Both the position numbers and the translations under genes were made by a program. A stretch of DNA of 51,354 nt, from positions 1 through 51,354 of IMG/VR virus record IMGVR_UViG_3300048114_000266; one strand, given 5' to 3'. The notes beneath the pieces were generated by a model, which was given only the letters and a program-made list of their open reading frames with translations, was not told the DNA's origin and did not search any database. The stretch is from a virus. Shown here one piece after another: positions 6,745 through 43,729 of this stretch. Within the stretch, counting starts at the first letter, position 1; each line of letters begins with the position of its first letter.

Positions 6745-8505
6745 TTAGTTGTCACCGCCGACCATGCGGGTGTTTGCGGACGCCGAATGTGCCGCTCCCG
6801 ACGCTTCGCTGTCGGCATTTTCGTCGTCGGTGACGCCGTCGTAGTCGACGCTAATGTCGTCGCCGTCACCGGACTTTTCGACTTGTTCGCGAAGGGCCTT
6901 TCGCGCGACTTCGGCGTCGTCGTGGCCCGTAATGTCCTTGACGATACGGTCGCCAAGTTGGTCCGGTTCCATCTTGTCCGCGTCGGGGTGTTCTTCGACG
7001 TCCGACCGAAGGTCGTCGACGTCGGACTTTAGGGCGCGCGCCCAATCCGGGGCGGCGTCCCAATCGACGCTGTCGGTGTCCGTCGACTTCGACACGTCGT
7101 CGCCGTCGCCACCGTCGGCGTCAGCGTCGGACTTGTCGACGTCGTCGGCGTCGCTGTCAGTATCGTCGTCGGACATGCTAATCCCGCCGTCGTCGCTACC
7201 GTCTTCGTCGTCTTCGCCCGACCCGTCTTCTTGGGTTTCGTCGCCGGTCCCTTCGCCCCCAGCGTCGCCGCCAAGGAATACGGAAAGGCCGGTGACTTGG
7301 CCTTCTTCGATACCTCCCGATTCGATAAGGGAGCGCACGAAGTCTTCGACAGTAGCGTCGCGCGACACCGACCCGTCGTCGACCATGCTACTGAATTCGG
7401 TAAGCATGGCCGACGCGGTGTCGGCGTTCATTTCCTGTTTGGTAGTCGTTTCCGTTCCGTCAGTCCCCGAATCACCGGGGTCGTCTTCGTCACTCATGCT
7501 AATGGTGTCGTAGTCGCACGAATCGGGTGTTTGGGCGGCAAGGTCGGCGACGTCGACGTCGACGACTTGCGCGGTCGCTTCTAACACTTCGACGTCGGGG
7601 CATTCGACCGAATCAGCGACGAAGTCGCGAATGTCTGATTCGTCGCGACCCGCTACTTCGGCAATTTCCCCGACCATGTCGGCGGCTTCGTCTTCCGATT
7701 CGGCAAGTTCCCGAATCTTGTCTTCGACGAATTCGCCGACGCCCTTCGACACCGATTCGTCCGCGTCGTCGGTTTCGCTCTTACTCATTTGCCCGTGCGA
7801 TTTGCCAAGAAGACTATCGACGTCGACGGGCTTCGCCCCGCCGTAAATCGACAGTCCGTTTAGGTCGCCCGACACGACGCGGTCCCACGTTTCGTCGTTA
7901 AACCGAATGCCCAAGACCCACGTACCTTCGGGGTATTCGCGGCTTTCCGTGCCGTCGGGCATTTCGAACGTCGTGTCTTGTTTTAGCGTCCAAGATTCGA
8001 CCGGCGTCCCCTTGCCGTCACGAAGGTCGTGGTCGCTGTCGACCTTGCGGTATTCGGAAAGGTATCGGTGGGCCGCGTCTTCGATAGCGGGCTTCGGAAT
8101 GACGTCGCCCTGTTTGTCGGCTTCTTTCGGGATTAGCACCGGGGCAAAGGCGATTTGCTTGACGTCGTCACCGCTGTCGTCGCGGTCTTTCTGAACGTAA
8201 AGCGTTGCCTCCGATTGCCAACGGTGCGACGACCCCGAAGGGTCGTCGGCGTCTTTCGCGATTACCCATTCGCTATCTTGTGCGGGCGTGTCTACCGGCG
8301 ACACGAATTCGACTTCTAAGCCGGTAAGGACTTCTTGGGCTTGCGGGTCGCTAAGGGCTTCTTTGCCTTCTTCTTCTAACCAGTTACAGAATTCTTCCGG
8401 GTCGTCTATGCCGGGTTCGTCCGACATAGCGGCTACGCACCCGTCAAAGGTGTCGAAGTCGTAGCCGGGGAAGGGTTTTCCGACTGGTTTTTGATTGTCG
8501 CCCAT
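6745..8505 (-). CDS. Scaffold or prohead-protease-like acidic protein
   Basis: ORF track, 586 aa, ATG at 8505; long low-complexity Asp/Ser/Gly tracts; lies between portal and capsid genes. Confidence 0.5.
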   Translation of the reverse strand: MGDNQKPVGKPFPGYDFDTFDGCVAAMSDEPGIDDPEEFCNWLEEEGKEALSDPQAQEVLTGLEVEFVSPVDTPAQDSEWVIAKDADDPSGSSHRWQSEATLYVQKDRDDSGDDVKQIAFAPVLIPKEADKQGDVIPKPAIEDAAHRYLSEYRKVDSDHDLRDGKGTPVESWTLKQDTTFEMPDGTESREYPEGTWVLGIRFNDETWDRVVSGDLNGLSIYGGAKPVDVDSLLGKSHGQMSKSETDDADESVSKGVGEFVEDKIRELAESEDEAADMVGEIAEVAGRDESDIRDFVADSVECPDVEVLEATAQVVDVDVADLAAQTPDSCDYDTISMSDEDDPGDSGTDGTETTTKQEMNADTASAMLTEFSSMVDDGSVSRDATVEDFVRSLIESGGIEEGQVTGLSVFLGGDAGGEGTGDETQEDGSGEDDEDGSDDGGISMSDDDTDSDADDVDKSDADADGGDGDDVSKSTDTDSVDWDAAPDWARALKSDVDDLRSDVEEHPDADKMEPDQLGDRIVKDITGHDDAEVARKALREQVEKSGDGDDISVDYDGVTDDENADSEASGAAHSASANTRMVGGDN

Positions 8506-8558: not shown

Positions 8559-8780
8559 CGTCAAATCGGCGGCGTCGTGACTATACAGCGTTACTATACA
8601 GACGTCGAAAAGCCGCCGCGCCCCGTGACGAACGCGGCGGACACGACGACGACGCGGTGTCGGGCGTGAAAGGTTTGGTGCGAACCCTATGACTTGCCCG
8701 CGACCGACCGGACGGGTCGCCCCGTCACTTCGACGTAGCGTCGGCCCCATTAAAAGCATGTCGGGCGGAACGTCGACGCC

Positions 8781-15443: not shown

Positions 15444-15641
15444 TTATTCTAAGTCGGCGCGCCGGACAAGACACCCGGACAAGCCGGATTGGCCTTGGCT
15501 GTTAGGGTCGCAAACCCAAGTCCCGGTCGCGCCACATTCGACGCACCGATACTTTCCGGTTCCGCCACGAACCGTTATTCGCTCATACACTTCTTCGACT
15601 TCCCCACCGCATTCGCAAACGAAGCCGTGTTCGTCGGACAT
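15444..15641 (-). CDS. Mini zinc-ribbon protein
   Basis: ORF track, 65 aa, CEC...CVEC pairs. Confidence 0.45.
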   Translation of the reverse strand: MSDEHGFVCECGGEVEEVYERITVRGGTGKYRCVECGATGTWVCDPNSQGQSGLSGCLVRRADLE

Positions 15642-16075: not shown

Positions 16076-16293
16076 CACTACACTTCCCGAACCCACATGA
16101 CGCGACATTCGTAACCTTCCGACACTTTGGACATAATCCAATCTACTTGTGAATTGCTAAGGGCGTCGCGGCCTTTCGGTTTAATGCCGACAGGTTTATT
16201 ACCGTGGGGTGCGTATCTACACCCGGACACCGACGCGGTGGCCCGGCGACCCGTCCGACCGGCGTGGTCGTCGACGACAGCAAACCCGTGACC

Positions 16294-16725
16294 ATGACGA
16301 CCAACTACGACGACCTACGACACCGTATCGGCGTATTGCGCGGCGGCCAACTATCGGTAAAAGTCCCGGCCGACGTCATTCCCGAAGTTAACGACGCCCA
16401 TTCGTTCCGTACCATATCGGAACGGGAAGGCGAAGACGGCGTCGTGACCGTGACGCTTGAAGAAGGGTTTACGCGCTTGGAGGTTCACGGCGTGACCGCC
16501 GTCTTCGACGGCTATCGCTACTTCCCGCGTGACCCCGACACCGTCGACTACGACCTTCGGGGCGACGTCGGCGACGCGAAGGTCGGCTTCGAAAGTGACG
16601 ACGGCCACGCCCCACTAACCGAAGACGTCCAAACCATGCACCCGGTTCGGAACATGACCGTTCATAGCCTTGTGAACGGCTTCGAACGCGGGAACGTCGA
16701 ACCGCTCCCGAAGCGGAACGACTGA
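16294..16725 (+). CDS. Hypothetical protein
   Basis: First ATG (16294) of ORF track 16204..16725; upstream gccgacagg-TTTATTA at 16185-16200 resembles the shared BRE/TATA. Confidence 0.5.
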   Translation: MTTNYDDLRHRIGVLRGGQLSVKVPADVIPEVNDAHSFRTISEREGEDGVVTVTLEEGFTRLEVHGVTAVFDGYRYFPRDPDTVDYDLRGDVGDAKVGFESDDGHAPLTEDVQTMHPVRNMTVHSLVNGFERGNVEPLPKRND

Positions 16726-25408: not shown

Positions 25409-25567
25409 TTAGGGGCGCGCGCCACACGACCGACAGACGTCGACGGGTACGACGCAAGACGGCGCGGCGTGGGGTTCGAAACTGACGTCGTCGACGCTGA
25501 CGACGTCGCCGTTCCGTAGTTCGAACGCCGTCACGACGTCACCGCCACATTCGGGGCACGGCGTCAT
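25409..25567 (-). CDS. Mini zinc-ribbon protein
   Basis: Internal ATG at 25567 of ORF track 25409..25873; MTPCPECGG ... CRSCG. Confidence 0.4.
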   Translation of the reverse strand: MTPCPECGGDVVTAFELRNGDVVSVDDVSFEPHAAPSCVVPVDVCRSCGARP

Positions 25568-25866: not shown

Positions 25867-26105
25867 TCGCCACCCCACGACACCGCGACGACGTCGACGT
25901 CTGAATACAGGTCGCCGTCTTCGCCTTGCAGTTTTAGAATTTTGTTCGGTATCGCTTCCCATGACGGATAATAGCCGACCGACCCGTCGTCGAAGGTGAC
26001 TTCGTAGCCCCACACGACCGGCCATTCGAAGTCGTGAACGACGTCGCCCGGCCACGCGTCGTCGGGTGCATGGTGGCCGTGCGCCGTCGGGAGCGCGCCC
26101 GTCAT
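25863..26105 (-). CDS. Small hypothetical protein
   Basis: ORF track, 80 aa; shares its first codons (MTGALP) and about 25 nt of upstream sequence with the 25866 gene. Confidence 0.45.
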   Translation of the reverse strand: MTGALPTAHGHHAPDDAWPGDVVHDFEWPVVWGYEVTFDDGSVGYYPSWEAIPNKILKLQGEDGDLYSDVDVVAVSWGGE

Positions 26106-26254
26106 TCGTCGCCACCGTCTTCGGCCATTTCTTCAAGTATTTCGAACCATTCCGCCCACCTTTTGACTTCCCAACATACCGGACAATACGGCTTCGGGTC
26201 GTATGTCCGTCGGATTATCGCCCCGGCGTGCCCGCATTCGACTTCGACCGTCAT
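26102..26254 (-). CDS. Mini zinc-ribbon protein
   Basis: Internal ATG at 26254 of ORF track 26102..26299; MTVEVECGH ... CPVC; ends DGGDE. Confidence 0.4.
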   Translation of the reverse strand: MTVEVECGHAGAIIRRTYDPKPYCPVCWEVKRWAEWFEILEEMAEDGGDE

Positions 26255-26376
26255 TCGTCTTCGCCCCCGTCGTGGTCGGGGTCTTCGACCCACCCGCAAC
26301 TACCGCAATAGATATACGACGGGTCGTTCGACGCGCGTATCGCATTCACCGCGCCACATTCGGGGCACGACGTCAT
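26251..26376 (-). CDS. Mini zinc-ribbon protein (41 aa; below the ORF-track size cut-off)
   Basis: Hand translation MTSCPECGAVNAIRASNDPSYIYCGSCGWVEDPDHDGGEDE; start and stop both overlap neighbours as ATGA. Confidence 0.4.
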   Translation of the reverse strand: MTSCPECGAVNAIRASNDPSYIYCGSCGWVEDPDHDGGEDE

Positions 26377-30398: not shown

Positions 30399-30733
30399 GT
30401 GTCTTCAGTAGCGTCGAATTCGTTCGTTTCGTCACGGGTGACGTCCAAGTCGCTGACGTCGCCGAACCGTTCGACCATGACCACGGCGGATTTGCGGACG
30501 TGCCGAACTTCGTCGTAGATTCGAATGGCTTCGGCGTCGCCCGCGTCTTGGTCGCCCAAGCCGTGCCGTGGCGGGGACACCGACGCGCGGTAGCCCGCAA
30601 GGTCGTCTTTGTCGTCAGTCGTCACGACGACGTCGACATGGGCGAATGCGCGCCCTTCGTCAGTAACGTCGGGGTGGTCGAAGAATAGCCGGAACGCCCG
30701 GCCCGTATCGAAGATTTGGTCGAACGTGTTCAT
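30395..30733 (-). CDS. Hypothetical protein
   Basis: ORF track, 112 aa; ATGA overlap with the upstream gene. Confidence 0.5.
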   Translation of the reverse strand: MNTFDQIFDTGRAFRLFFDHPDVTDEGRAFAHVDVVVTTDDKDDLAGYRASVSPPRHGLGDQDAGDAEAIRIYDEVRHVRKSAVVMVERFGDVSDLDVTRDETNEFDATEDT

Positions 30734-31101
30734 GGGTGGGGGTCGTAGGCGTCTTGTGCGAATTCAGTCACGTCGTCGGGGTGAACGTCGATACCGACGA
30801 ACGTCGTCAGATACGACGCAAGGGCTTCGGTCGCCTTGTCGGTCGCGACGTAGGTATTCGTCCGCTTGTCGCGTTCGCCCTTGTAGATAAATCCATTCCG
30901 AACCAAGTCGTCAAGGTTCGGGTAAAGGCGGCCGTGATTGACTTCTTCGCCACGGATTACCTCTAAGTCGCGCTTAATCGCTAAGCCGTGCGGTCGGTCG
31001 TCGGGGGACGCACCGGGAGAGCCACCAAGCCGCATGATTGCGATAGCGGCCTGTTGTTGAAAGGCGGTAAGGTGCGCCCAATCGCTCACTTTCGGGTTCA
31101 T
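30730..31101 (-). CDS. Winged-helix transcription regulator (PadR/MarR-like)
   Basis: ORF track, 123 aa; GRLYPNLDDLVRNGFIYKGERDKRTNTYVATDKATEAL reads as recognition helix plus wing; a palindromic site lies just upstream. Confidence 0.55.
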   Translation of the reverse strand: MNPKVSDWAHLTAFQQQAAIAIMRLGGSPGASPDDRPHGLAIKRDLEVIRGEEVNHGRLYPNLDDLVRNGFIYKGERDKRTNTYVATDKATEALASYLTTFVGIDVHPDDVTEFAQDAYDPHP

Positions 31102-31310: not shown

Positions 31311-31469
31311 CTACGTGACGGCGCGCACGCTGTCGTCGTTCCGAACCAAGTCGCGAACACAAGGAGCGCACACGTCGACGGGTCGCGGGTCGCGGTCGTC
31401 GTCGACGTAATAGATTCTATGCGGGGCCGTTTCGACGCTGTCGCGGTCGCATTCGTCGCACGTTCCCAT
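31311..31469 (-). CDS. Mini zinc-ribbon protein
   Basis: Internal ATG at 31469 of Arg-rich ORF track 31311..31946; MGTCDECDRD ... CAPC. Confidence 0.35.
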   Translation of the reverse strand: MGTCDECDRDSVETAPHRIYYVDDDRDPRPVDVCAPCVRDLVRNDDSVRAVT

Positions 31470-35438: not shown

Positions 35439-35521
35439 TGCGACGGGCCGGATTCGAACCGGCGAACCCCTACGGGACACGGTCTTAAGCCGTGCGCGTT
35501 TGGCCACTTTGCTACCGTCGC
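35439..35521 (-). tRNA. tRNA-Leu, anticodon UAA
   Basis: Hand fold of GCGACGGTAGCAAAGTGGCCAAACGCGCACGGCTTAAGACCGTGTCCCGTAGGGGTTCGCCGGTTCGAATCCGGCCCGTCGCA: 7-bp acceptor stem, anticodon stem CACGG/CCGTG with loop CTTAAGA, long variable arm, T-arm GCCGG-TTCGAAT-CCGGC. The D-stem is weak. Confidence 0.7.
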
Positions 35522-35599: not shown

Positions 35600-35716
35600 T
35601 AGTCGCGGGTGGATTCGAACCACCGTCGTAGGCTTACTTTCGGGCACGCCCCCTTCGACCTTCGTTCAGCGTGCCCGTCCAAAGGCCCACATGATTGGCC
35701 ACTACACCACGCGACT
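35600..35716 (-). tRNA. tRNA-Gln, anticodon UUG, with a 44-nt intron
   Basis: Exon 1 AGTCGCGTGGTGTAGTGGCCAATCATGTGGGCCTTTGG and exon 2 AGCCTACGACGGTGGTTCGAATCCACCCGCGACTA give a perfect acceptor stem, anticodon stem TGGGC/GCCTA and T-arm GGTGG-TTCGAAT-CCACC. The insert sits at the canonical 37/38 position. Confidence 0.7.
35635..35678 (-). other. tRNA intron
   Basis: Contains a 9-bp inverted repeat CGGGCACGC ... GCGTGCCCG, compatible with a splicing helix. Confidence 0.6.
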
Positions 35717-35765
35717 GCAAGCGTTGGTTTCGAATCTATCCGGTTAAGGCATGTCGGTCGCCGGC

Positions 35766-37840: not shown

Positions 37841-39358
37841 CTATTCGTCGTCGTAGTCGACGCCGGGGAGGTTCGTTAGGTTCCACCCGTTCGACGACAT
37901 GCCCGTCCCGGCCGAATGCGTGTCGTCGCACGACGGGCACGAAAGACCCAGCGACCGACTGACTTCCGTGCGGCGGCCGGCCGAATAGTGGGACGTGCGT
38001 AGCATGGGAACCTTGTCAGCGCCACACGTCGGGCACGTCGACAGCGCGTCGAAGACGTCGCGACCCTTGTCCGTGGCGACCCACGCCGCGTCGGGGTCGT
38101 CGACGTCGGTATCGCGGTCGTCGGCGCGGGCAATCAGCCCCGTGTCTTCGGCGTCGCGTAGCACCGTGCGGAAGTAGCGGAACTTGTGGGCGAACCCCTT
38201 CGGGCGGCGTAGTCCCGTGCCGGGCTTTCCCGTGTCGCCGCGCCCCGTCGAAACGCGACCTTGTTCGCCGGTCTTGACCGGGCCGACGTCTTCGGGGTCG
38301 ACTTCGTCGTCGCTGTCGAACATGCCGCCGTCGGTCGCGGCGTCGACGCCCGCCACGTAGTTGCCCCAGTAAATCACGTCGCGAAGAAGCGACGTGATAT
38401 GATTCGCGTCGAAGGACTTGTGTTCAGACATGCGCGCTTCGACGTCGTCGGGAAGGTCGGCGTCGTCGACCGACCACACGGTCGCGCCTTCGCACGACGG
38501 GCACACGTCGCCGAAGTGTTCGTGCGTCTTCTTGGCCGGCGTTTCCCATTCGTCGCCGCAACGGGAGCATTCGAACGTGTCGACGTAGGCTTCGGCGGTC
38601 TTGTTCATGTCGTCGTCGTATTCCGGGCTGACGTGGGCCTTGTCGTTCACCGCGCCGACGTATTTCTCAAGCGCAAGCGTGCGAACGACGTTCGCGAACG
38701 TCGTCAAGTCGTCGTCTTCGTAGTCGTCGACCTTCGCTTCCCATTCGTCGACGTCTTCGAAGTCAGTCGACACGCCGTCGTCGGGAATAGTGGCGCGGTA
38801 GAAGGTCGGCGCGTCGGCGTCGGTCGGGTCGACGTCGTCGCGGTCGGTCATGCGGCGGCCGACGACGACTTCGAAGGGGCAATCGTCTTCCGGGCACGTA
38901 TGCCGCGCCGTGTGGTCGTCGTCATATTCGGCTTCGTGGCCGCCGTGAACGGGGCACGTCACGCGGCCGGCGAACGATAGCGATTCGACGGGCGCGTCGC
39001 GGTCGTAGGATTCGACCACCTTGTGAACGATTTGGCCATCTTCGACCGTCGTGTGCGTGTTCCGTTCGTGGCGGACCATGAACGTCGTGTCGCTGTCGCT
39101 GACGTGACGAAGGTAGTGGTCACGGTCGCCGTGTTCGTCGTCAAGCACCGCGTCGACGGTGACTTCGCCGCCGTCAGCGACGGCGTTCCGGGCGCGGAAT
39201 TCAGCGATTGCGGCTTCGGCGTTGGCCCGAAGCGTGTCGACGGCCGGGGCGTCGTCGGGGAGGTTCGCCGCGACGGGGGCGACTTCGTTAATGTAGGCCG
39301 CAAGGCGGGCGGTCGAAAACCGTTCGACGTCGACGTCGGCTTCGGTGGTTTCGGTCAT
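37841..39358 (-). CDS. Large hypothetical protein with several Cys pairs
   Basis: ATG at 39358 within ORF track 37841..39370; begins MTETTEADVDV; motifs CPVHGG, CSRCGDE, CPSCEG, CPTCGAD. Confidence 0.6.
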   Translation of the reverse strand: MTETTEADVDVERFSTARLAAYINEVAPVAANLPDDAPAVDTLRANAEAAIAEFRARNAVADGGEVTVDAVLDDEHGDRDHYLRHVSDSDTTFMVRHERNTHTTVEDGQIVHKVVESYDRDAPVESLSFAGRVTCPVHGGHEAEYDDDHTARHTCPEDDCPFEVVVGRRMTDRDDVDPTDADAPTFYRATIPDDGVSTDFEDVDEWEAKVDDYEDDDLTTFANVVRTLALEKYVGAVNDKAHVSPEYDDDMNKTAEAYVDTFECSRCGDEWETPAKKTHEHFGDVCPSCEGATVWSVDDADLPDDVEARMSEHKSFDANHITSLLRDVIYWGNYVAGVDAATDGGMFDSDDEVDPEDVGPVKTGEQGRVSTGRGDTGKPGTGLRRPKGFAHKFRYFRTVLRDAEDTGLIARADDRDTDVDDPDAAWVATDKGRDVFDALSTCPTCGADKVPMLRTSHYSAGRRTEVSRSLGLSCPSCDDTHSAGTGMSSNGWNLTNLPGVDYDDE

Positions 39359-39420
39359 AGTGGTTCGCACCTACTACCCACTAACAGGGCTACGGTAATA
39401 AAGGTGTCGGCGTTGCACCA
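39359..39420 (-). promoter_or_regulatory. Promoter-leader cassette
   Basis: Gene-strand cgccgacacc-TTTATTA-ccgtagccctgttagtgggtagtaggtgcgaaccact-ATG. Confidence 0.6.
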
Positions 39421-39441
39421 CGGGTTAGGTATTGCCTGATT

Positions 39442-39458
39442 GGTATATTAGCGACATA
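39442..39458 (+). promoter_or_regulatory. BRE/TATA-like promoter of the TFB-like gene
   Basis: cgacatac-TTTTATG about 35 nt upstream of ATG 39489. Confidence 0.45.
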
Positions 39459-39488
39459 CTTTTATGCCGGTCGGCGGTACGTGTCGGT

Positions 39489-40538
39489 ATGGAAACGGAA
39501 CCAGATACCGACGCGACCGACCGGATTCGTTCGATTGCCGAACGGGTCGGGTTCGACGACAGTATCGGCGACTTGGCTACCCAAGTGTTCACGAACGCCG
39601 TCGAAGAAGGCGTCGTCACCGCCGTCGTCGACCGCGACGAAAGCGGTCGCTTCGAAGGTGAAACGCGGAACTACCCGGCGGCCGCATACCCGGCGGCCGT
39701 GTATGCCGCCGCGCGGATTCGTGACATTCCGACCAAGCCGTCCGAAGTCGCTGACGCGGCCGACGTCGACGCTGACGTCGACGCTGTCGGTGACTATTAC
39801 AAGGACATGCTTGGGGCGCTACCCTACACCGTCGAACCGGAAGACCCGGTCGATTGGGTGCGCCGGCTTTGCGACGACTTGGACGTGTCCCCCGGCTTCG
39901 AAACCGACGCCGTCGACTTGTGCGGCGACGCTGTCGGTGCGAACCTGCATAACGGCAAGGCCGTGTCCGGGTTCGCCGCCGCCGTCGTCTACGCGACGTC
40001 GGAATATCGCGACGCTGACGTCGGGCAAGACCGTATCGCCGAAGTCGCCGACGTGTCGCCCGTGACGATTCGGAACCAGTACCGCGACGTCTTGGAATTG
40101 TGGGAACGGGCGGCCGAACCGGGCGACCCCGACGTGATTCGGGCCGCCGTTAACGACGTGTGTGACCGTATCGACGGGCTTCCCTCCCGCGTGCGGGCCG
40201 ACGTCGCCGACCTTGCCGCCGACGCTATCGACGCCGACGCCGACTTCGTCAGTAACACCGACCCCGACGGCGTGGCGGCCGGTATCGTCTACGTGGCGGC
40301 GAAAGACGCCCGCGTCGACGTCAGTCAAACCGAAGTCGCTGACGTCGCGGGCGTGTCGAAGTCGACCGTCGTGAACCGGGTAAACGACGTCCGCGATTGG
40401 CGGCGTCGGAAGGACTTCGAAGCGAAGGAATACAATACGCTAAAGCAAATCGCGGCCGACCACGGCGTCGACGTCGGGCAACAGCCCGAACGCCCCTATC
40501 TTATCGACCGCTTAGTCGAAGCGGGTGTCGACGCATGA
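39489..40538 (+). CDS. TFB/TFIIB-core-like transcription factor with no N-terminal zinc ribbon
   Basis: First ATG of ORF track 39432..40538. SGFAAAVVYATSEYRDADVGQDRIAEVADVSPVTIRNQYRDVLEL closely follows the pattern I recall for the second cyclin repeat and HTH of archaeal TFB; two further similar modules are present. The N-terminus has no Cys pairs. Confidence 0.6.
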   Translation: METEPDTDATDRIRSIAERVGFDDSIGDLATQVFTNAVEEGVVTAVVDRDESGRFEGETRNYPAAAYPAAVYAAARIRDIPTKPSEVADAADVDADVDAVGDYYKDMLGALPYTVEPEDPVDWVRRLCDDLDVSPGFETDAVDLCGDAVGANLHNGKAVSGFAAAVVYATSEYRDADVGQDRIAEVADVSPVTIRNQYRDVLELWERAAEPGDPDVIRAAVNDVCDRIDGLPSRVRADVADLAADAIDADADFVSNTDPDGVAAGIVYVAAKDARVDVSQTEVADVAGVSKSTVVNRVNDVRDWRRRKDFEAKEYNTLKQIAADHGVDVGQQPERPYLIDRLVEAGVDA

Positions 40539-40945
40539 ACGGCAAGAAGCGCGTCGAAGTCGAATTTATCGACCCCGACGAAGGCGGGTTTAGCATGACG
40601 TCGGGGGCGTCGCCGTCGGCGGCCGAATATGACACGGTGTCCGTCGAATTCGAATTGCACGAACTTGAACGGGTCCGCGACCGTGTCTTCGACGTAATAG
40701 CCGCCGCCCATTCGGATAACAAGCGTGTCGCTGGGGTCGTCGTCGGCGTTCGCGAATACCTTCGGCTATACGCGCTTATCAGTCACGAAATGGGCGACAC
40801 GTCAGCCCCAGCGACGAAGGCGCACGTCGAAGACCTAATCGGGCGTCCCGTGACGGTCGTCGGCGGGTCGACCGTCAGCGTCGAATACGAAGACGACGAC
40901 GGGCGTCTTGCCGAACACGTCTTCGAAATGGGTGGTCGCGAATGA
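40535..40945 (+). CDS. Hypothetical protein
   Basis: Internal ATG at 40535 of ORF track 40397..40945; ATGA overlap with the TFB-like gene stop. Confidence 0.5.
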   Translation: MNGKKRVEVEFIDPDEGGFSMTSGASPSAAEYDTVSVEFELHELERVRDRVFDVIAAAHSDNKRVAGVVVGVREYLRLYALISHEMGDTSAPATKAHVEDLIGRPVTVVGGSTVSVEYEDDDGRLAEHVFEMGGRE

Positions 40946-41217
40946 CCGACATGCCGCCCATGCCGACGGCTACCGAAGCGGTGACTATCGAAGTCGACGA
41001 CCCGACCGACCCCGAAGCGTATGCGCGTGCCGCGTACCGGGCGCAAGCGTCGGCCATGATTACCGAAATGATGTATGGCCATTCCGCGATAACTGTCGAC
41101 GACGACGGTATTCACGTCGCTGTCGGCGTCGAAAGCCTTCCGGGGACCGACACCGACACCTACGGGAAAGCACCGATTGAAGCCATTCGGGAGCAAAGGG
41201 GTGAATCGAATGACTGA
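40942..41217 (+). CDS. Small hypothetical protein
   Basis: ORF track, 91 aa; ATGA overlap. Confidence 0.45.
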   Translation: MTDMPPMPTATEAVTIEVDDPTDPEAYARAAYRAQASAMITEMMYGHSAITVDDDGIHVAVGVESLPGTDTDTYGKAPIEAIREQRGESND

Positions 41218-41878
41218 CGAAGACGATATTCCGACGGTCGACGTCGACGACCTTCCCGAAGGCGCGTTAGACAATATCGACGTCGCGACAGTCGGGGACA
41301 CCGACCGCTTCCCGCCCGACATGTCCGTCGAAGACTTCAGCGACCCGAATGAATCGCTTGTTCGGTCGTTCGACGACGATATTGCCAAGGCGGTTCAGTC
41401 CGCCGTGTGGCATACGATTGTCGACGGCGCGGGGCACGAAGCCTTCGTCGACGACCTAACGGCCGAATCCATGCGCGACGCTATCGAACGGCTTCAGTCG
41501 AACGGCTTCGCGACCGAACGACTGTCGGCGACCGACGTTTGGGGAGAAAGTGACGGCCGGCCGTCGGGCGCGGCGTTTTTCATGGGTGACGACGTCGCTG
41601 ACGACTTCGAAGACGTCGTCGACGAATGGGTGCGAATCGACGACGGTGACGACGCCGACGACTTTGACCGTGTGAAGTTCGACGGCTACCTTGCCGAACG
41701 GGTCGAAGACGGACTTCCGTCGCACCTTGTCGTCTTGGTCGACGTCGACGCAATCGCCCGCGTGCCGCCCCACGCCCGTCACGTTCCGGTCGGATTGGAT
41801 ACGACCCCCAGCGTATCCTCCCCGATTGTCGTCGCCCAAGAAGACGGTATCGCCGTGATTAACGTCGCCCAACAGTAG
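41210..41878 (+). CDS. Hypothetical acidic protein
   Basis: Internal ATG at 41210 of ORF track 41177..41878; begins MTDEDDIP. Confidence 0.5.
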   Translation: MTDEDDIPTVDVDDLPEGALDNIDVATVGDTDRFPPDMSVEDFSDPNESLVRSFDDDIAKAVQSAVWHTIVDGAGHEAFVDDLTAESMRDAIERLQSNGFATERLSATDVWGESDGRPSGAAFFMGDDVADDFEDVVDEWVRIDDGDDADDFDRVKFDGYLAERVEDGLPSHLVVLVDVDAIARVPPHARHVPVGLDTTPSVSSPIVVAQEDGIAVINVAQQ

Positions 41879-41892
41879 CGTAAGCGAACCCT

Positions 41893-42309
41893 ATGACAGC
41901 ACTACAAGACTTTGCGGAATGGTTCAAGGCGCGGGAAACGAAAATCGAAGCGTGGTATAGCGACGGCGTCGGCCGCTTCGCGTTCCGCGTGACCGTCGAC
42001 GGCCAAGCGTTCGTATGTGCGGCCCGGTCGTCGCCACCGAAGGACGGGAAGACGTCGATAATGGCCCGTGTCGCGGGGAAGGCGCAAACGTCAGACGCGC
42101 TTATCGCCCTTCGATTGCCGGGCGGGATTCGTGTCTTCGACCCGGTGACGGTCTTGGATACCGGGGAGCGTGACACGCCCGCCCAATCCGACCGTCGCGA
42201 ACGCGACGAATCATGGGTCGCGGTCGACCTATCCGTCGCTTGCACGTTCAGCGAATGGTACGACGGTGACGCGAAGCCGCTTCGGTTCGCCGACGTCACC
42301 GAAGCCTAA
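41893..42309 (+). CDS. Hypothetical protein
   Basis: ORF track, 138 aa; a short gcgaaccct leader precedes the ATG. Confidence 0.5.
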   Translation: MTALQDFAEWFKARETKIEAWYSDGVGRFAFRVTVDGQAFVCAARSSPPKDGKTSIMARVAGKAQTSDALIALRLPGGIRVFDPVTVLDTGERDTPAQSDRRERDESWVAVDLSVACTFSEWYDGDAKPLRFADVTEA

Positions 42310-42338
42310 GATTCGCGAACGCCGGGAAAGATTCAGTC

Positions 42339-42351
42339 CTTTTTGTTTTTT
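42339..42351 (+). terminator. Oligo-T tract, candidate archaeal transcription terminator
   Basis: ccTTTTTgTTTTTTc about 30 nt downstream of the stop of 41893..42309. Confidence 0.45.
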
Positions 42352-42431
42352 CACGCTGACGACGTAGGAGTATGACGGGGTCGTAGCCACCGGCTAACGA
42401 CCCCGTTAGTGTAGGTCTAAGCGTTTGTGTT

Positions 42432-42485
42432 GTTACTACTACACTACACTACACTACTACTAACTAACACTATACTACTACACGA
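42432..42485. repeat. AT-rich low-complexity ACTAC pentanucleotide tract
   Basis: ttactactacactacactacactactactaactaacactatactactacac, immediately upstream of the promoter of the 42535 gene. Confidence 0.7.
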
Positions 42486-42493
42486 CCACTTAA

Positions 42494-42506
42494 CCGACAC
42501 TTATTT
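42494..42506 (+). promoter_or_regulatory. BRE/TATA-like promoter of the regulator gene
   Basis: ccgacac-TTATTT about 30 nt upstream of ATG 42535. Confidence 0.5.
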
Positions 42507-42534
42507 GCAGTTAGTGGTCTTTTGGTGGTCTTGC

Positions 42535-43191
42535 ATGTCGAAAGACGGTTTGGTGCGACTTCCCCGAATCAGCGAATCGCTCCGTGACGAATTCCGCGAC
42601 GACGTCGAAGACCGCTTCGGAACGGTACGCGGTCACTACCGTTCGGAAGTCGAAAAAGCCCTTCGTGAATACCTGAACGGGTCGCACGGCGGGGATACTG
42701 ACGACCGCCTTCGCCGGTTAGAAAACGCGGTCGAACGTATCGACGAACGAACCGCCGCCCTACACGCTGACGAATCGGGAAAAAACAAAAAGGATTCAGA
42801 CGTTTCCCCCACGACCCAAAATCGGATTGAATCAATCCGTGACCGTGTCGAACGCGAATCGGGAACCGGCCCCGTTCACGAAGCGGTCGTGCGGCAAGCA
42901 ATCGAAGACGTCGCCGGCCATAGTGACCCGACCATTCGGCGGTACATGCAAATGCTTACCGATAGGGAAATACTGTATCCCCACCCGAACCGCGACACGA
43001 AGTTCGTTTACGGGGAAGAAGAATATGCGTGCATGATTCAAAGCATGGCCGAATCGGGAGCAATCACCGAAAGCGAATATTGGGACGTCGTCACCGGCAT
43101 GGGCGGCGAAAACGACTTCCGCAATATCTTGGAACGCGCCGGCTACGACGACGGCGGTGACGACAAGCCCGCCGGTCGAACCTTTCAGTAG
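42535..43191 (+). CDS. Putative DNA-binding regulator (N-terminal RHH-like, C-terminal winged-helix-like)
   Basis: Internal ATG at 42535 of ORF track 42427..43191. N-terminus LVRLPRISESLRDEFRDDVEDRFG fits a strand-helix-helix pattern; C-terminus HEAVVRQAIEDVAGHSDPTIRRYMQMLTDREILYP fits a winged helix. Confidence 0.5.
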   Translation: MSKDGLVRLPRISESLRDEFRDDVEDRFGTVRGHYRSEVEKALREYLNGSHGGDTDDRLRRLENAVERIDERTAALHADESGKNKKDSDVSPTTQNRIESIRDRVERESGTGPVHEAVVRQAIEDVAGHSDPTIRRYMQMLTDREILYPHPNRDTKFVYGEEEYACMIQSMAESGAITESEYWDVVTGMGGENDFRNILERAGYDDGGDDKPAGRTFQ

Positions 43192-43228
43192 CGACACGCA
43201 CTTGCCGACCGTTCCCGTTAGTTAGGCC

Positions 43229-43729
43229 ATGTCTTCCGCGAAGGGCGATAGGTGGGAACGGCATTACGTGAACGCGCTTAGTGCCGACGACCCCGACGAC
43301 GATAGCGACGACGTCGAACGGGTCGGTATCGACGACTTCGCGTTAGTCGAACCGTTCACGGCGTTACGCCTTCCCGCTTCCGGCGCGGGGCGTTCCGCCG
43401 ACCTTCCCGACATTCATGCGTGGCTTTGCCCCGACGCCCATACAGTCCGACAGTACGCCGCCGAATCGAAGGCGGGGGCCGACCGGGTGTATTTGGATAA
43501 CGACGAAGTAGACGCGCTTGTGCGCTACGCTGACGACACGGGGGCGACGCCGGTCGTGTTCGTTCATATCGACCACGAACACGCACATGACGACTTAGGC
43601 GGCGATTACGTCGTCGCTATTGACGAACTACATTCGACAGCGTCGGGCTACACGTTCACGAAGACCCGCGACGCCCCGACAGCCCGGACGTTCGCCGAAT
43701 GGGTCGACGACCCCCAATCGGTCGCTTAG
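43229..43729 (+). CDS. hjc: Holliday junction resolvase (Hjc-like)
   Basis: ORF track, 166 aa. GDRWERHYVNAL ... LRLPASGAGRS ... PDIHAW ... AAESKAG ... VYLDNDEVDALVRYADDTGATPVVFVHI follows the pattern I recall for archaeal Hjc (G.xFER ... SGS ... PD ... E.K ... Y ... P..AV). Confidence 0.55.
   Translation: MSSAKGDRWERHYVNALSADDPDDDSDDVERVGIDDFALVEPFTALRLPASGAGRSADLPDIHAWLCPDAHTVRQYAAESKAGADRVYLDNDEVDALVRYADDTGATPVVFVHIDHEHAHDDLGGDYVVAIDELHSTASGYTFTKTRDAPTARTFAEWVDDPQSVA

Follow-up and report, generated by a model that had tools for sequence, protein, structure and literature searches.

Gene and genomic context

Why a virus should carry a gene resembling the core of the archaeal general transcription factor TFB, and what its product could do without the parts that bring RNA polymerase (RNAP) to a promoter, is the question raised by an open reading frame (ORF) at positions 39489-40538 (plus strand, stop codon included) of IMG/VR record IMGVR_UViG_3300048114_000266. 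The whole stretch of 51,354 nt that was analysed is referred to here as the window. A preliminary description of the sequence had given these coordinates and a 349-aa product, and both the position and the length were exact. An upstream TTG at 39432 would add 19 residues; such an extension would run over the promoter cassette described below, and the ATG position is the start in all 24 homologues.

The window represents a complete viral genome, since its first 127 nt recur exactly at its end. The gene had been called virus-encoded, in accordance with which the same contig encodes a major head protein, a maturation protease, a portal, a large terminase and a minor tail protein, as well as an Hjc resolvase, PCNA and a PadR regulator. 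The source is a tailed virus of salt-loving archaea; among cultured viruses it comes closest to HHTV-2 and HCTV-2, two Haloarcula siphoviruses of the Saparoviridae, with ~50% identity in the capsid protein. Pfam scans of all predicted proteins, many of them from ORFs that stayed unannotated, detected by homology no viral TBP, integrase, other initiation factor or second TFB-like protein.

The main plus-strand block (39489-43726) comprises seven ORFs. Behind the TFB-like gene at its head, the remaining six (40535-43726, plus strand) end with an Hjc-type Holliday-junction resolvase (43229-43726, plus strand; PF01870, E=7.6e-8). The preliminary description had the gene heading the only plus-strand block; it is indeed the first gene of the main one, but a further plus-strand ORF (16294-16722) exists with its own cassette at 16187. 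On the opposite strand lies a divergent neighbour of ~505 aa (37841-39358, minus strand), which has three CxxC...CxxC motifs and no Pfam match, and homologues of this Zn-finger-rich protein directly adjoin the TFB-like gene in four related loci (L001, L005, L012 and L013). The block layout headed by the TFB-like gene was also found in L001, L003, L004, L005 and the tail-less relative L016. In these five contigs and the window, all ~46-52 kb long, the gene occupies the same slot, namely that of the first gene in a short plus-strand block that ends near Hjc and runs divergently from a PCNA/methylase block.

Three cyclin repeats and a C-terminal tail

A profile HMM search against TFIIB/TFB families and a structure prediction for comparison with the TFB core had been proposed as checks on the likeness to TFB, and both were run. 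The whole protein matched PF00382 significantly (E=1.7e-24, 86 bits, with a cut-off of 23.6 bits), and each of the three consecutive modules that had been read as TFB cyclin-type repeats exceeded the cut-off when scanned separately (24.7, 41.9 and 30.6 bits). The AlphaFold2 model (mean pLDDT 85.3) was cyclin-like, with three five-helix bundles at residues 7-110, 120-205 and 214-311; with a pTM of 0.51, the full-length model does not define how repeat 3 is placed against repeats 1-2. Sequence searches of the PDB returned the Pyrococcus TFB core (1ais_B and 1d3u_B, E=1e-14) and the human TFIIB core (E=4e-7). The NCBIfam TFB profile NF001658 aligned through its positions 131-304 (of 312) to residues 13-203 only, and the whole-protein score of 114.3 bits fell under the curated cut-off of 384. 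These results support the identification of the protein as a TFB derivative encoded by a virus. The database holds an identical protein, whose JGI name, 'TFIIIB Brf1 subunit/TFIIB', is that of the TFIIB/Brf1 COG and is a COG label only.

Repeat 1 (residues ~7-110; 39507-39818, plus strand; 24.7 bits alone) carries the invariant residues Y72 and R76, and its modelled helices span residues 7-20, 24-39, 66-77, 84-90 and 97-110. Between helices 2 and 3 lies a family-specific insertion of ~15-25 residues (~40-65; 39606-39683, plus strand), which is predicted to form a beta-hairpin with strands at 46-49 and 55-61, at low modelling confidence (pLDDT 57-73). The insertion is missing from cellular TFBs and from three divergent members of the family (P0022, P0024 and P0026).

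Repeat 2 (residues ~120-205; 39846-40103, plus strand; 41.9 bits alone) contains the canonical helix-turn-helix (HTH) that reads the BRE. The peptide quoted in the preliminary description as the best match to this HTH, VYATSEYRD...VTIRNQYRDVLEL, lies within repeat 2, and Pyrococcus TFB and human TFIIB do align with it through their BRE-reading HTH. Position arithmetic on the human TFIIB alignment places HTH2 at residues 180-202 (40026-40094, plus strand), QDRIAEVADVSPVTIRNQYRDVL.

The third TFB cyclin repeat (residues ~214-311; 40128-40421, plus strand) has no equivalent in cellular TFBs. Profile-profile comparison identified it as a copy of the repeat-2 type (probability 98.9%, E=2e-17), and the protein therefore bears two BRE-type HTH heads in tandem. 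HTH3 lies at residues 280-304 (40326-40400, plus strand), QTEVADVAGVSKSTVVNRVNDVRDW, with generic HTH Pfam matches at 274-301.

Beyond repeat 3, a conserved two-helix tail of the SAP/HeH/Rho_N-like kind (residues ~315-344; 40431-40520, plus strand; consensus YNxLKxLAAxxxVDVGxTPERxYLIDRL) forms the C-terminus; it had been overlooked in the first reading. Its predicted fold, two short helices and an extended loop with a conserved Gly, matches known SAP/Rho_N structures, and it is this fold match that makes a SAP/Rho_N-like assignment probable. Searches with the tail sequence gave no Pfam (SAP, Rho_N) match and no PDB sequence match. Proteins matching the tail alone have sub-threshold SAP and Rho_N matches, one of which overlaps the matched stretch.

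A virus-associated family with conserved contact residues

Homologues with the full architecture form ~26 clusters of 324-371 aa, at identities down to 38% and with a mean column identity of 58%. A search with the C-terminal half against 1.84 billion cluster representatives recovered the whole module in 8 representatives at E<1e-30, and the same search matched >1,000 ordinary TFBs through repeat 3 alone. A wider set of ~290-310 aa proteins has three ribbon-less repeats without the tail, and eight loci in IMG/VR encode relatives. The family was seen only on viral or virus-like metagenomic contigs: a pattern-based scan of 185,579 prokaryotic species-representative genomes gave no proviral copies, and plasmids carry no copy of the family, only ordinary TFBs matching at <=58% coverage. 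Cultured viruses gave no DNA or tblastn match at E<=1e-5, and at E<=10 the sole match was an unrelated full-length TFB of Sulfolobales virus YNP1.

The nearest cellular relatives are haloarchaeal TFBs, as would be expected if the gene were a decaying or mis-annotated host TFB copy, 5'-truncated and functionless. Such a reading is scarcely conceivable. Start, length and all four modules are maintained in at least 25 full-length homologues, the gene sits at a conserved genomic position behind a consensus promoter of its own, and the extra repeat and the tail are gains; decay is effectively refuted by this family-wide conservation.

Alignment to the human TFIIB core (HMMER, position arithmetic) equates R76 with R169, V192 with V283 and R195 with R286 of the human protein, the latter two of which we take to be BRE-contacting residues. 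R76 and R195 show no variation across the 25 viral and 6 cellular sequences; position 192 is V or T in 20 of the 25 members. Human TFIIB R169 contacts the TBP stirrup, and its mutation abolishes TBP-TATA association (PMC6004067). Elsewhere in HTH2, Y198 is invariant and R199 is kept in 24 of 25 family members. HTH3 shows a comparable pattern, with V294, R297 and D300 invariant and K291, R302 and R307 kept in 23-24 of 25, so that K291, R297, R302 and R307 make up a conserved basic cluster; the tail adds the conserved basic residues K319 and R335. The basic pair aligned with human K188/K189 is conserved neither in the family nor in cellular haloarchaeal TFBs. Judging by these residues, the BRE-reading HTH and the TBP-contact Arg appear to be retained. 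Although the protein is strongly acidic (74 D+E vs 35 K+R), its conserved basic residues are concentrated in HTH2, HTH3 and the tail, a clustering that points to a DNA-bound function.

Conservation of the TBP-contact residue R76 would equally suit a protein that works off DNA, titrating in solution a regulator that interacts with TFB, or one or several of the host's TBP paralogues, and thereby re-balancing TBP/TFB combinations, and haloarchaea do have several TBP and TFB paralogues (PMC7289017). We regard this sequestration as very improbable, however: the basic residues that are conserved best lie in the two HTH recognition helices and the SAP-like tail, which is not expected if sequestration were all that the protein does.

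Loss of the polymerase-recruiting module

In every characterised TFB/TFIIB system, RNAP recruitment and DNA opening depend on the ribbon, B-reader and B-linker, the last two being required for start-site selection as well. The TFB ribbon binds the dock of RNAP and recruits the enzyme; reader and linker work inside the cleft, and reading of the BRE falls to the second cyclin fold (PMC7289017). The absence of an N-terminal Cys pair, and with it the apparent absence of the Zn-ribbon and B-reader, had been noticed from the letters of the gene alone, and it extends to the whole family. The protein has Cys at 128, 145 and 225 only, and a CxxC pair occurs in 0 of 25 family members; the NCBIfam alignment begins at profile position 131; and the Zn-ribbon profile PF08271 had no match in the protein or in any of the 26 family clusters, while the cellular matches have it. 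When the family was aligned with six cellular haloarchaeal TFBs, the first ~110-145 residues of the latter were unmatched, a region that holds the CPEC...C..CG ribbon, the GPEWR reader and the HDxGLST linker.

All six-frame segments from the complete genome and four related loci were searched with a custom HMM built on haloarchaeal TFB N-termini. A held-out TFB control scored 167 bits with this HMM and the viral family <=1.6 bits; across the genome and the four loci nothing was significant, the best match (E=0.011) being a 41-aa generic Zn ribbon. This small stand-alone ORF matches PF08271 below threshold (21.7 bits vs a cut-off of 29) and ~15 other generic ribbon families equally well, and the related loci, over the limited stretches that they span, showed no homologue. 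A split TFB, with ribbon and reader on a separate ORF, was considered and rejected as evidence, though kept as a lead, the 41-aa generic ribbon being the only candidate.

Because neither the N-terminal HMM nor the Pfam scans of all predicted proteins gave anything convincing, the loss of the polymerase-recruiting module is genome-wide and not an annotation artefact. With no ribbon, no reader or linker, and a score under the curated cut-off, the protein cannot be counted functionally among the TFBs; it derives from them and represents a new variant in architecture.

The ribbon is likewise missing from ORC6, which has two TFIIB-like domains and binds DNA as part of the origin recognition complex. 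A corresponding, non-transcriptional DNA-binding role in the virus would consist in origin marking or genome organisation at the divergent control region, a site that adjoins the PCNA-containing replication block. We consider this quite improbable, and the viral protein falls outside the ORC6 cyclin-like domains (e.g. PF21913).

A promoter cassette shared by family-encoding viruses

Upstream of the TFB-like gene, a regex match identified the near-consensus cassette GCGACAT-a-CTTTTAT (39451-39465, plus strand), made up of a heptamer in the BRE slot (39451-39457), a 1-nt spacer and the TATA-like box CTTTTAT (39459-39465). The distance from the heptamer start to the ATG is 38 nt, the leaderless geometry of the cassette set as a whole; this agrees with the leaderless-style promoter that the preliminary description had assigned to the gene, and the transcript is predicted to be leaderless. 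Back-to-back with it, CCGACAC-c-TTTATTA (39396-39410, minus strand) serves the 505-aa neighbour, whose ATG is 52 nt downstream. The homologues in L003, L004, L012, L013 and L016 are preceded by the same cassette. An inverted CCGACAC at 39481-39487 was considered as an autoregulatory operator and dropped, as it is not conserved in L003 or L004 and is probably due to chance.

The heptamer CCGACAC occurs 37 times in the genome, with 19.6 occurrences expected. A strict form of the cassette, defined as [CG]CGACA[CTG], 1-2 nt, [CT]TT[ATC][ATC], occurs 18 times vs ~1 in shuffles (maximum 5). Sixteen of the 18 precede an ATG-initiated ORF of >=45 aa at +38 to +107; an intron-containing tRNA gene follows one of the remaining two, and for the last no ORF lies within 130 nt. 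A profile built from 49 instances in ten loci reads taGTnnAnCA-CCGACAC-gC-TTTTa, with A/T at +27/+28 and starts at ~+38, and its conservation reaches ~10 bp upstream of the heptamer. On this profile, the cassette has the standard haloarchaeal BRE/TATA/-10 'WW'/TSS geometry, with the heptamer in the BRE slot, for which the published haloarchaeal consensus is CGAAA (PMC4983044).

All 11 of the family-encoding virus contigs checked contain the cassette, including those of members at 41-45% identity and of the tail-less relative, and in most of them one copy stands before the TFB-like gene itself. HHTV-2 and HCTV-2, in which the protein is absent, use GGGAAAC-C-TTTATA in the BRE slot, and their cassette density is 0.2-0.4 per 10 kb vs 1.0-4.3 in the other viruses. 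The association between protein and cassette is real but phylogenetically confounded, with a negative side of two genomes. Neither covariation of HTH2/HTH3 residues with heptamer variants nor covariation of HTH3 subtypes with the upstream element gave a signal in these small samples.

The association is what a virus-specific positive initiation factor would produce, that is, a protein replacing host TFB at viral promoters much as phage sigma factors do. HTH2 would then read CCGACAC, HTH3 and the tail would read the conserved ~10 bp upstream, and RNAP would arrive by a non-canonical route, through repeat 3, the tail, the repeat-1 hairpin or a ribbon partner of viral or host origin. This would account both for the co-occurrence and for the extra DNA-binding heads. 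It is in keeping with the strong over-representation of the cassette and its position before ORFs in 16 of 18 cases, with its presence in every family-encoding contig and the different element of the two viruses that lack the protein, and with a heptamer that departs from the published CGAAA consensus (PMC4983044). Conservation over ~10 bp upstream would accommodate a second HTH at a distance of one helical turn, haloarchaea already rely on several TFBs to select promoters (PMC7289017), and the genome does encode the 41-aa stand-alone Zn ribbon with its sub-threshold PF08271 match.

Several results nevertheless leave a positive factor possible but doubtful. No B-reader or B-linker was detected in the complete genome, so a novel recruitment route would be needed, and the 41-aa mini-ribbon matches many generic ribbon families equally. 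HHTV-2 and HCTV-2 have highly repeated extended cassettes without any TFB-like gene; cassette conservation alone therefore implies no dedicated reader. In addition, the gene's own promoter belongs to the same cassette class, so host factors must recognise the cassette, and host TFB must use it before any viral protein exists. This weakens the case for an obligatory activator, and autoregulation fits. The stronger proposition, that protein and CCGACAC cassette together constitute a virus-specific initiation system, in which a TFB-like factor with three heads reads an extended viral BRE and directs host RNAP to viral promoters without ribbon, B-reader or B-linker, we judge unlikely; if true, it would amount to a new route of RNAP recruitment in archaeal/Pol II-type machinery and to an archaeal counterpart of takeover by phage sigma factors.

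A candidate decoy of host TFB

The reading that we favour, though we would put it at somewhat less than an even chance, is that the protein binds TBP-BRE/TATA complexes without recruiting RNAP and so competes with TFB as a decoy ('anti-TFB'). Since the protein consists of a TFB core with intact contact residues, and since it is the ribbon that recruits RNAP, occupancy of promoters without polymerase would be expected. The genome holds no detectable TBP or other initiation factor, so nothing was found that could supply recruitment, which favours a decoy.

Made from a leaderless transcript that starts in the divergent control region, the protein would dock on TBP-TATA complexes in the stead of host TFB, with HTH2 reading the BRE. 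HTH3 and the tail could provide added affinity or specificity on DNA further upstream, and with no RNAP recruited, a dead-end complex would be left at the promoter. In this scheme we infer the binding to TBP and DNA, the competition with TFB and the identity of the target promoters. As to the last, two kinds of target are about equally likely: host promoters of the CGAAA type, which would be shut off while the viral CGACA promoters escape, and the virus's own CCGACAC cassettes, where the outcome would be global repression, auto-repression or timing. Host shut-off and redirection of transcription to the CCGACAC-TATA promoters, both put forward in the preliminary description, are the two leading hypotheses.

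Two features of the family fit a decoy less readily. Strict co-occurrence with a non-canonical BRE heptamer is equally expected of a positive specificity factor. A TFB core would suffice for a decoy, and the conservation of repeat 3, the tail and the repeat-1 insertion may be a sign of further partners.

Haloarchaea are amenable to in vitro and genetic work, and the family would make it possible to test there how BRE specificity is encoded, whether occupancy by a TFB core is enough on its own to silence promoters in vivo and whether RNAP can be recruited without ribbon or reader. In the genomes concerned, a BRE-reading head present in two copies goes together with a distinctive BRE, and the family shows that three repeats, each with an HTH, can be built on the TFB scaffold. 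Such a three-repeat scaffold bears on the homology that has been proposed between TFB/TFIIB and multi-HTH sigma factors (PMC4581349). Examples that have been characterised comprise small HTH or RHH regulators and a single RNAP-binding inhibitor (PMC5569661, PMC5123050); beside these, the protein would be the first candidate for a viral protein that mimics a general initiation factor at the TBP-promoter step, a result that would surprise specialists in archaeal transcription and virology.

Comparison with known TFB derivatives and polymerase inhibitors

TFB homologues have been reported before from archaeal viruses, namely Sulfolobales virus YNP1, the rudiviruses MRV1, ARV3 and SSRV1, the Asgard wyrdvirus WyrdV1 and, as VP3, the haloarchaeal spindle virus Tebi-SV1; like the present family they are TFB homologues of archaeal viruses, and none has been functionally characterised. 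In the literature, viral TFB homologues were mentioned only for rudiviruses, Asgard viruses and one haloarchaeal spindle virus, and a 2021 survey of archaeal tailed viruses leaves TFB unmentioned. YNP1, the sole earlier viral TFB that was compared by architecture, has a complete TFB with a ribbon (PF08271, 30.9 bits), a GPEWRAY B-reader, a linker and two repeats, whereas the present family is ribbon-less, has three repeats and belongs to tailed haloviruses.

The archaeal TFBc of the Pyrococcus woesei TBP-TFBc-DNA structures (1AIS, 1D3U) is a laboratory truncation, whereas the viral protein is the product of a native core-only gene, to which a third repeat, a SAP-like tail and the repeat-1 insertion have been added. 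A natural truncation is found in Sulfolobus TFB3, a TFB paralogue that modulates transcription as an activator and is not a stand-alone initiation factor; it retains the N-terminal ribbon and is without a functional core. TFB3 is involved in the UV response (PMC6101591). Truncation in the viral protein is the opposite, with the core kept and the ribbon gone, and TFB3 is cellular.

If the decoy model is right, functional analogues would be ATV ORF145/RIP (PMC5123050) and TFS4 (PMC5715097), a virus-encoded and a host-encoded protein that shut down host RNAP activity. Both bind RNAP, whereas the viral protein, with no RNAP-binding module, is predicted to act at the level of the promoter and TBP, and the folds are unrelated.

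Among the eukaryotic relatives of TFB, Brf1 and Rrn7 have not lost the ribbon, and what extends them at the C-terminus is something other than cyclin repeats. The viral protein does not qualify as a Brf1/TFIIIB protein, as it is without a ribbon and its C-terminal extension consists of a third TFB repeat and a SAP-like tail. This combination of three TFB repeats and a SAP tail sets it apart from Brf1, Rrn7/TAF1B, ORC6 and VITF-3 alike, and two of these, ORC6 and the small subunit of poxvirus VITF-3, are far more distant from it, at 8-13% identity.

A repeated promoter cassette in viruses with the TFB-like gene

Eighteen copies of the predicted promoter cassette, against about one expected, were located across the window. 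In this cassette the BRE slot carries CCGACAC or GCGACAC, with a TATA-like box immediately after it. They lie on the minus strand at 1613, 8764, 14223, 15421, 16070, 19657, 22399, 22758, 25285, 27300, 27736, 31145, 33872, 35757, 37694, and 39410, and on the plus strand at 16187 and 39451; 16 of the 18 are followed by an ATG-initiated ORF 38–107 nt downstream. The minus-strand cassette at 8764 (CCGACAT-g-CTTTTAA) matches the consensus. No ATG-ORF lies within 130 nt of it, and the first gene start downstream, that of a protease at 8505, is ~259 nt away; the transcript could carry an extended leader or be a small non-coding RNA.

Downstream of six minus-strand cassettes (39410, 33872, 27736, 19657, 16070, and 14223) we observed a conserved 5′ leader of ~25 nt, gttagtgggtagtaGGTGcgaacc(a)ATG, and the sequence upstream of the heptamer in this subset tends toward GTAGTGTAAC. 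A similar leader, gtgagtgtagcaggtgaaaccacaATG, occurs in the cultured relative HHTV-2, and leaders of this type may act as a common signal for translation or regulation, or else mark a promoter subclass.

Among the related viruses examined, the CCGACAC-type cassette is common to all those with the TFB-like gene. HHTV-2 and HCTV-2, cultured relatives without this gene, each have a repeated cassette of their own: ccctcGGGGAAAC-C-TTTATA in HHTV-2 (L006; for example upstream of 416, 1703, 5983, 22336, and 38639) and GGGAAACC-nCTTAG in HCTV-2 (L007). The BRE of these two cassettes is purine-rich and close to the canonical CGAAA. CCGACAC cassettes are also present on L016, a 51.6-kb virus-like contig on which the gene for the TFB-like homologue P0062 (10001–10888) occupies the same genomic slot as the TFB-like gene of the window. 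P0062 belongs to a wider group of acidic proteins of ~290–310 aa (P0061–P0069), which have three TFIIB repeats and lack both the Zn ribbon and the SAP-like tail.

The window contains two tRNA genes, at 35600–35716 (−) and 35439–35521 (−). A tRNA-Leu(TAA) was called by ARAGORN, while the second gene, detected with Rfam (46 bits) and missed by ARAGORN, is presumably intron-containing, because it is 117 nt long. It lies directly downstream of the cassette at 35757, an arrangement also seen in the related contigs L003 and L013.

Neighbouring and other candidate regulatory genes

Transcribed divergently from the TFB-like gene is a protein of ~505 aa (37841–39358, −) that matches no Pfam family and in which CxxC...CxxC motifs occur three times. 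Its homologues (40–52% identity) directly adjoin the TFB-like gene in L001, L005, L012, and L013, and not in L003, L004, or L016. A PadR-family transcriptional regulator (30733–31101, −; E = 2.8e−10), kept in L001, L003, and L004, is a candidate second viral transcription regulator.

By two methods (a custom HMM and PF08271), the closest sequence to a TFB ribbon in the window genome is a stand-alone four-Cys Zn ribbon of 41 aa (MTSCPECG...CGSCGWV; 26254–26376, −); the ORF upstream ends in a stop codon that overlaps its start codon. It scored E = 0.011 with the custom HMM and 21.7 bits with PF08271, below the cut-off of 29, and many generic ribbon families match it equally well. Other small CxxC proteins nearby are encoded at 25412–25567, 26105–26254, 31314–31469, and 15447–15641.

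Finally, the two contig ends (1–127 and 51228–51354) form an exact direct repeat of 127 nt, which indicates that the genome is complete at ~51.2 kb and either is terminally redundant or was assembled as a circle.
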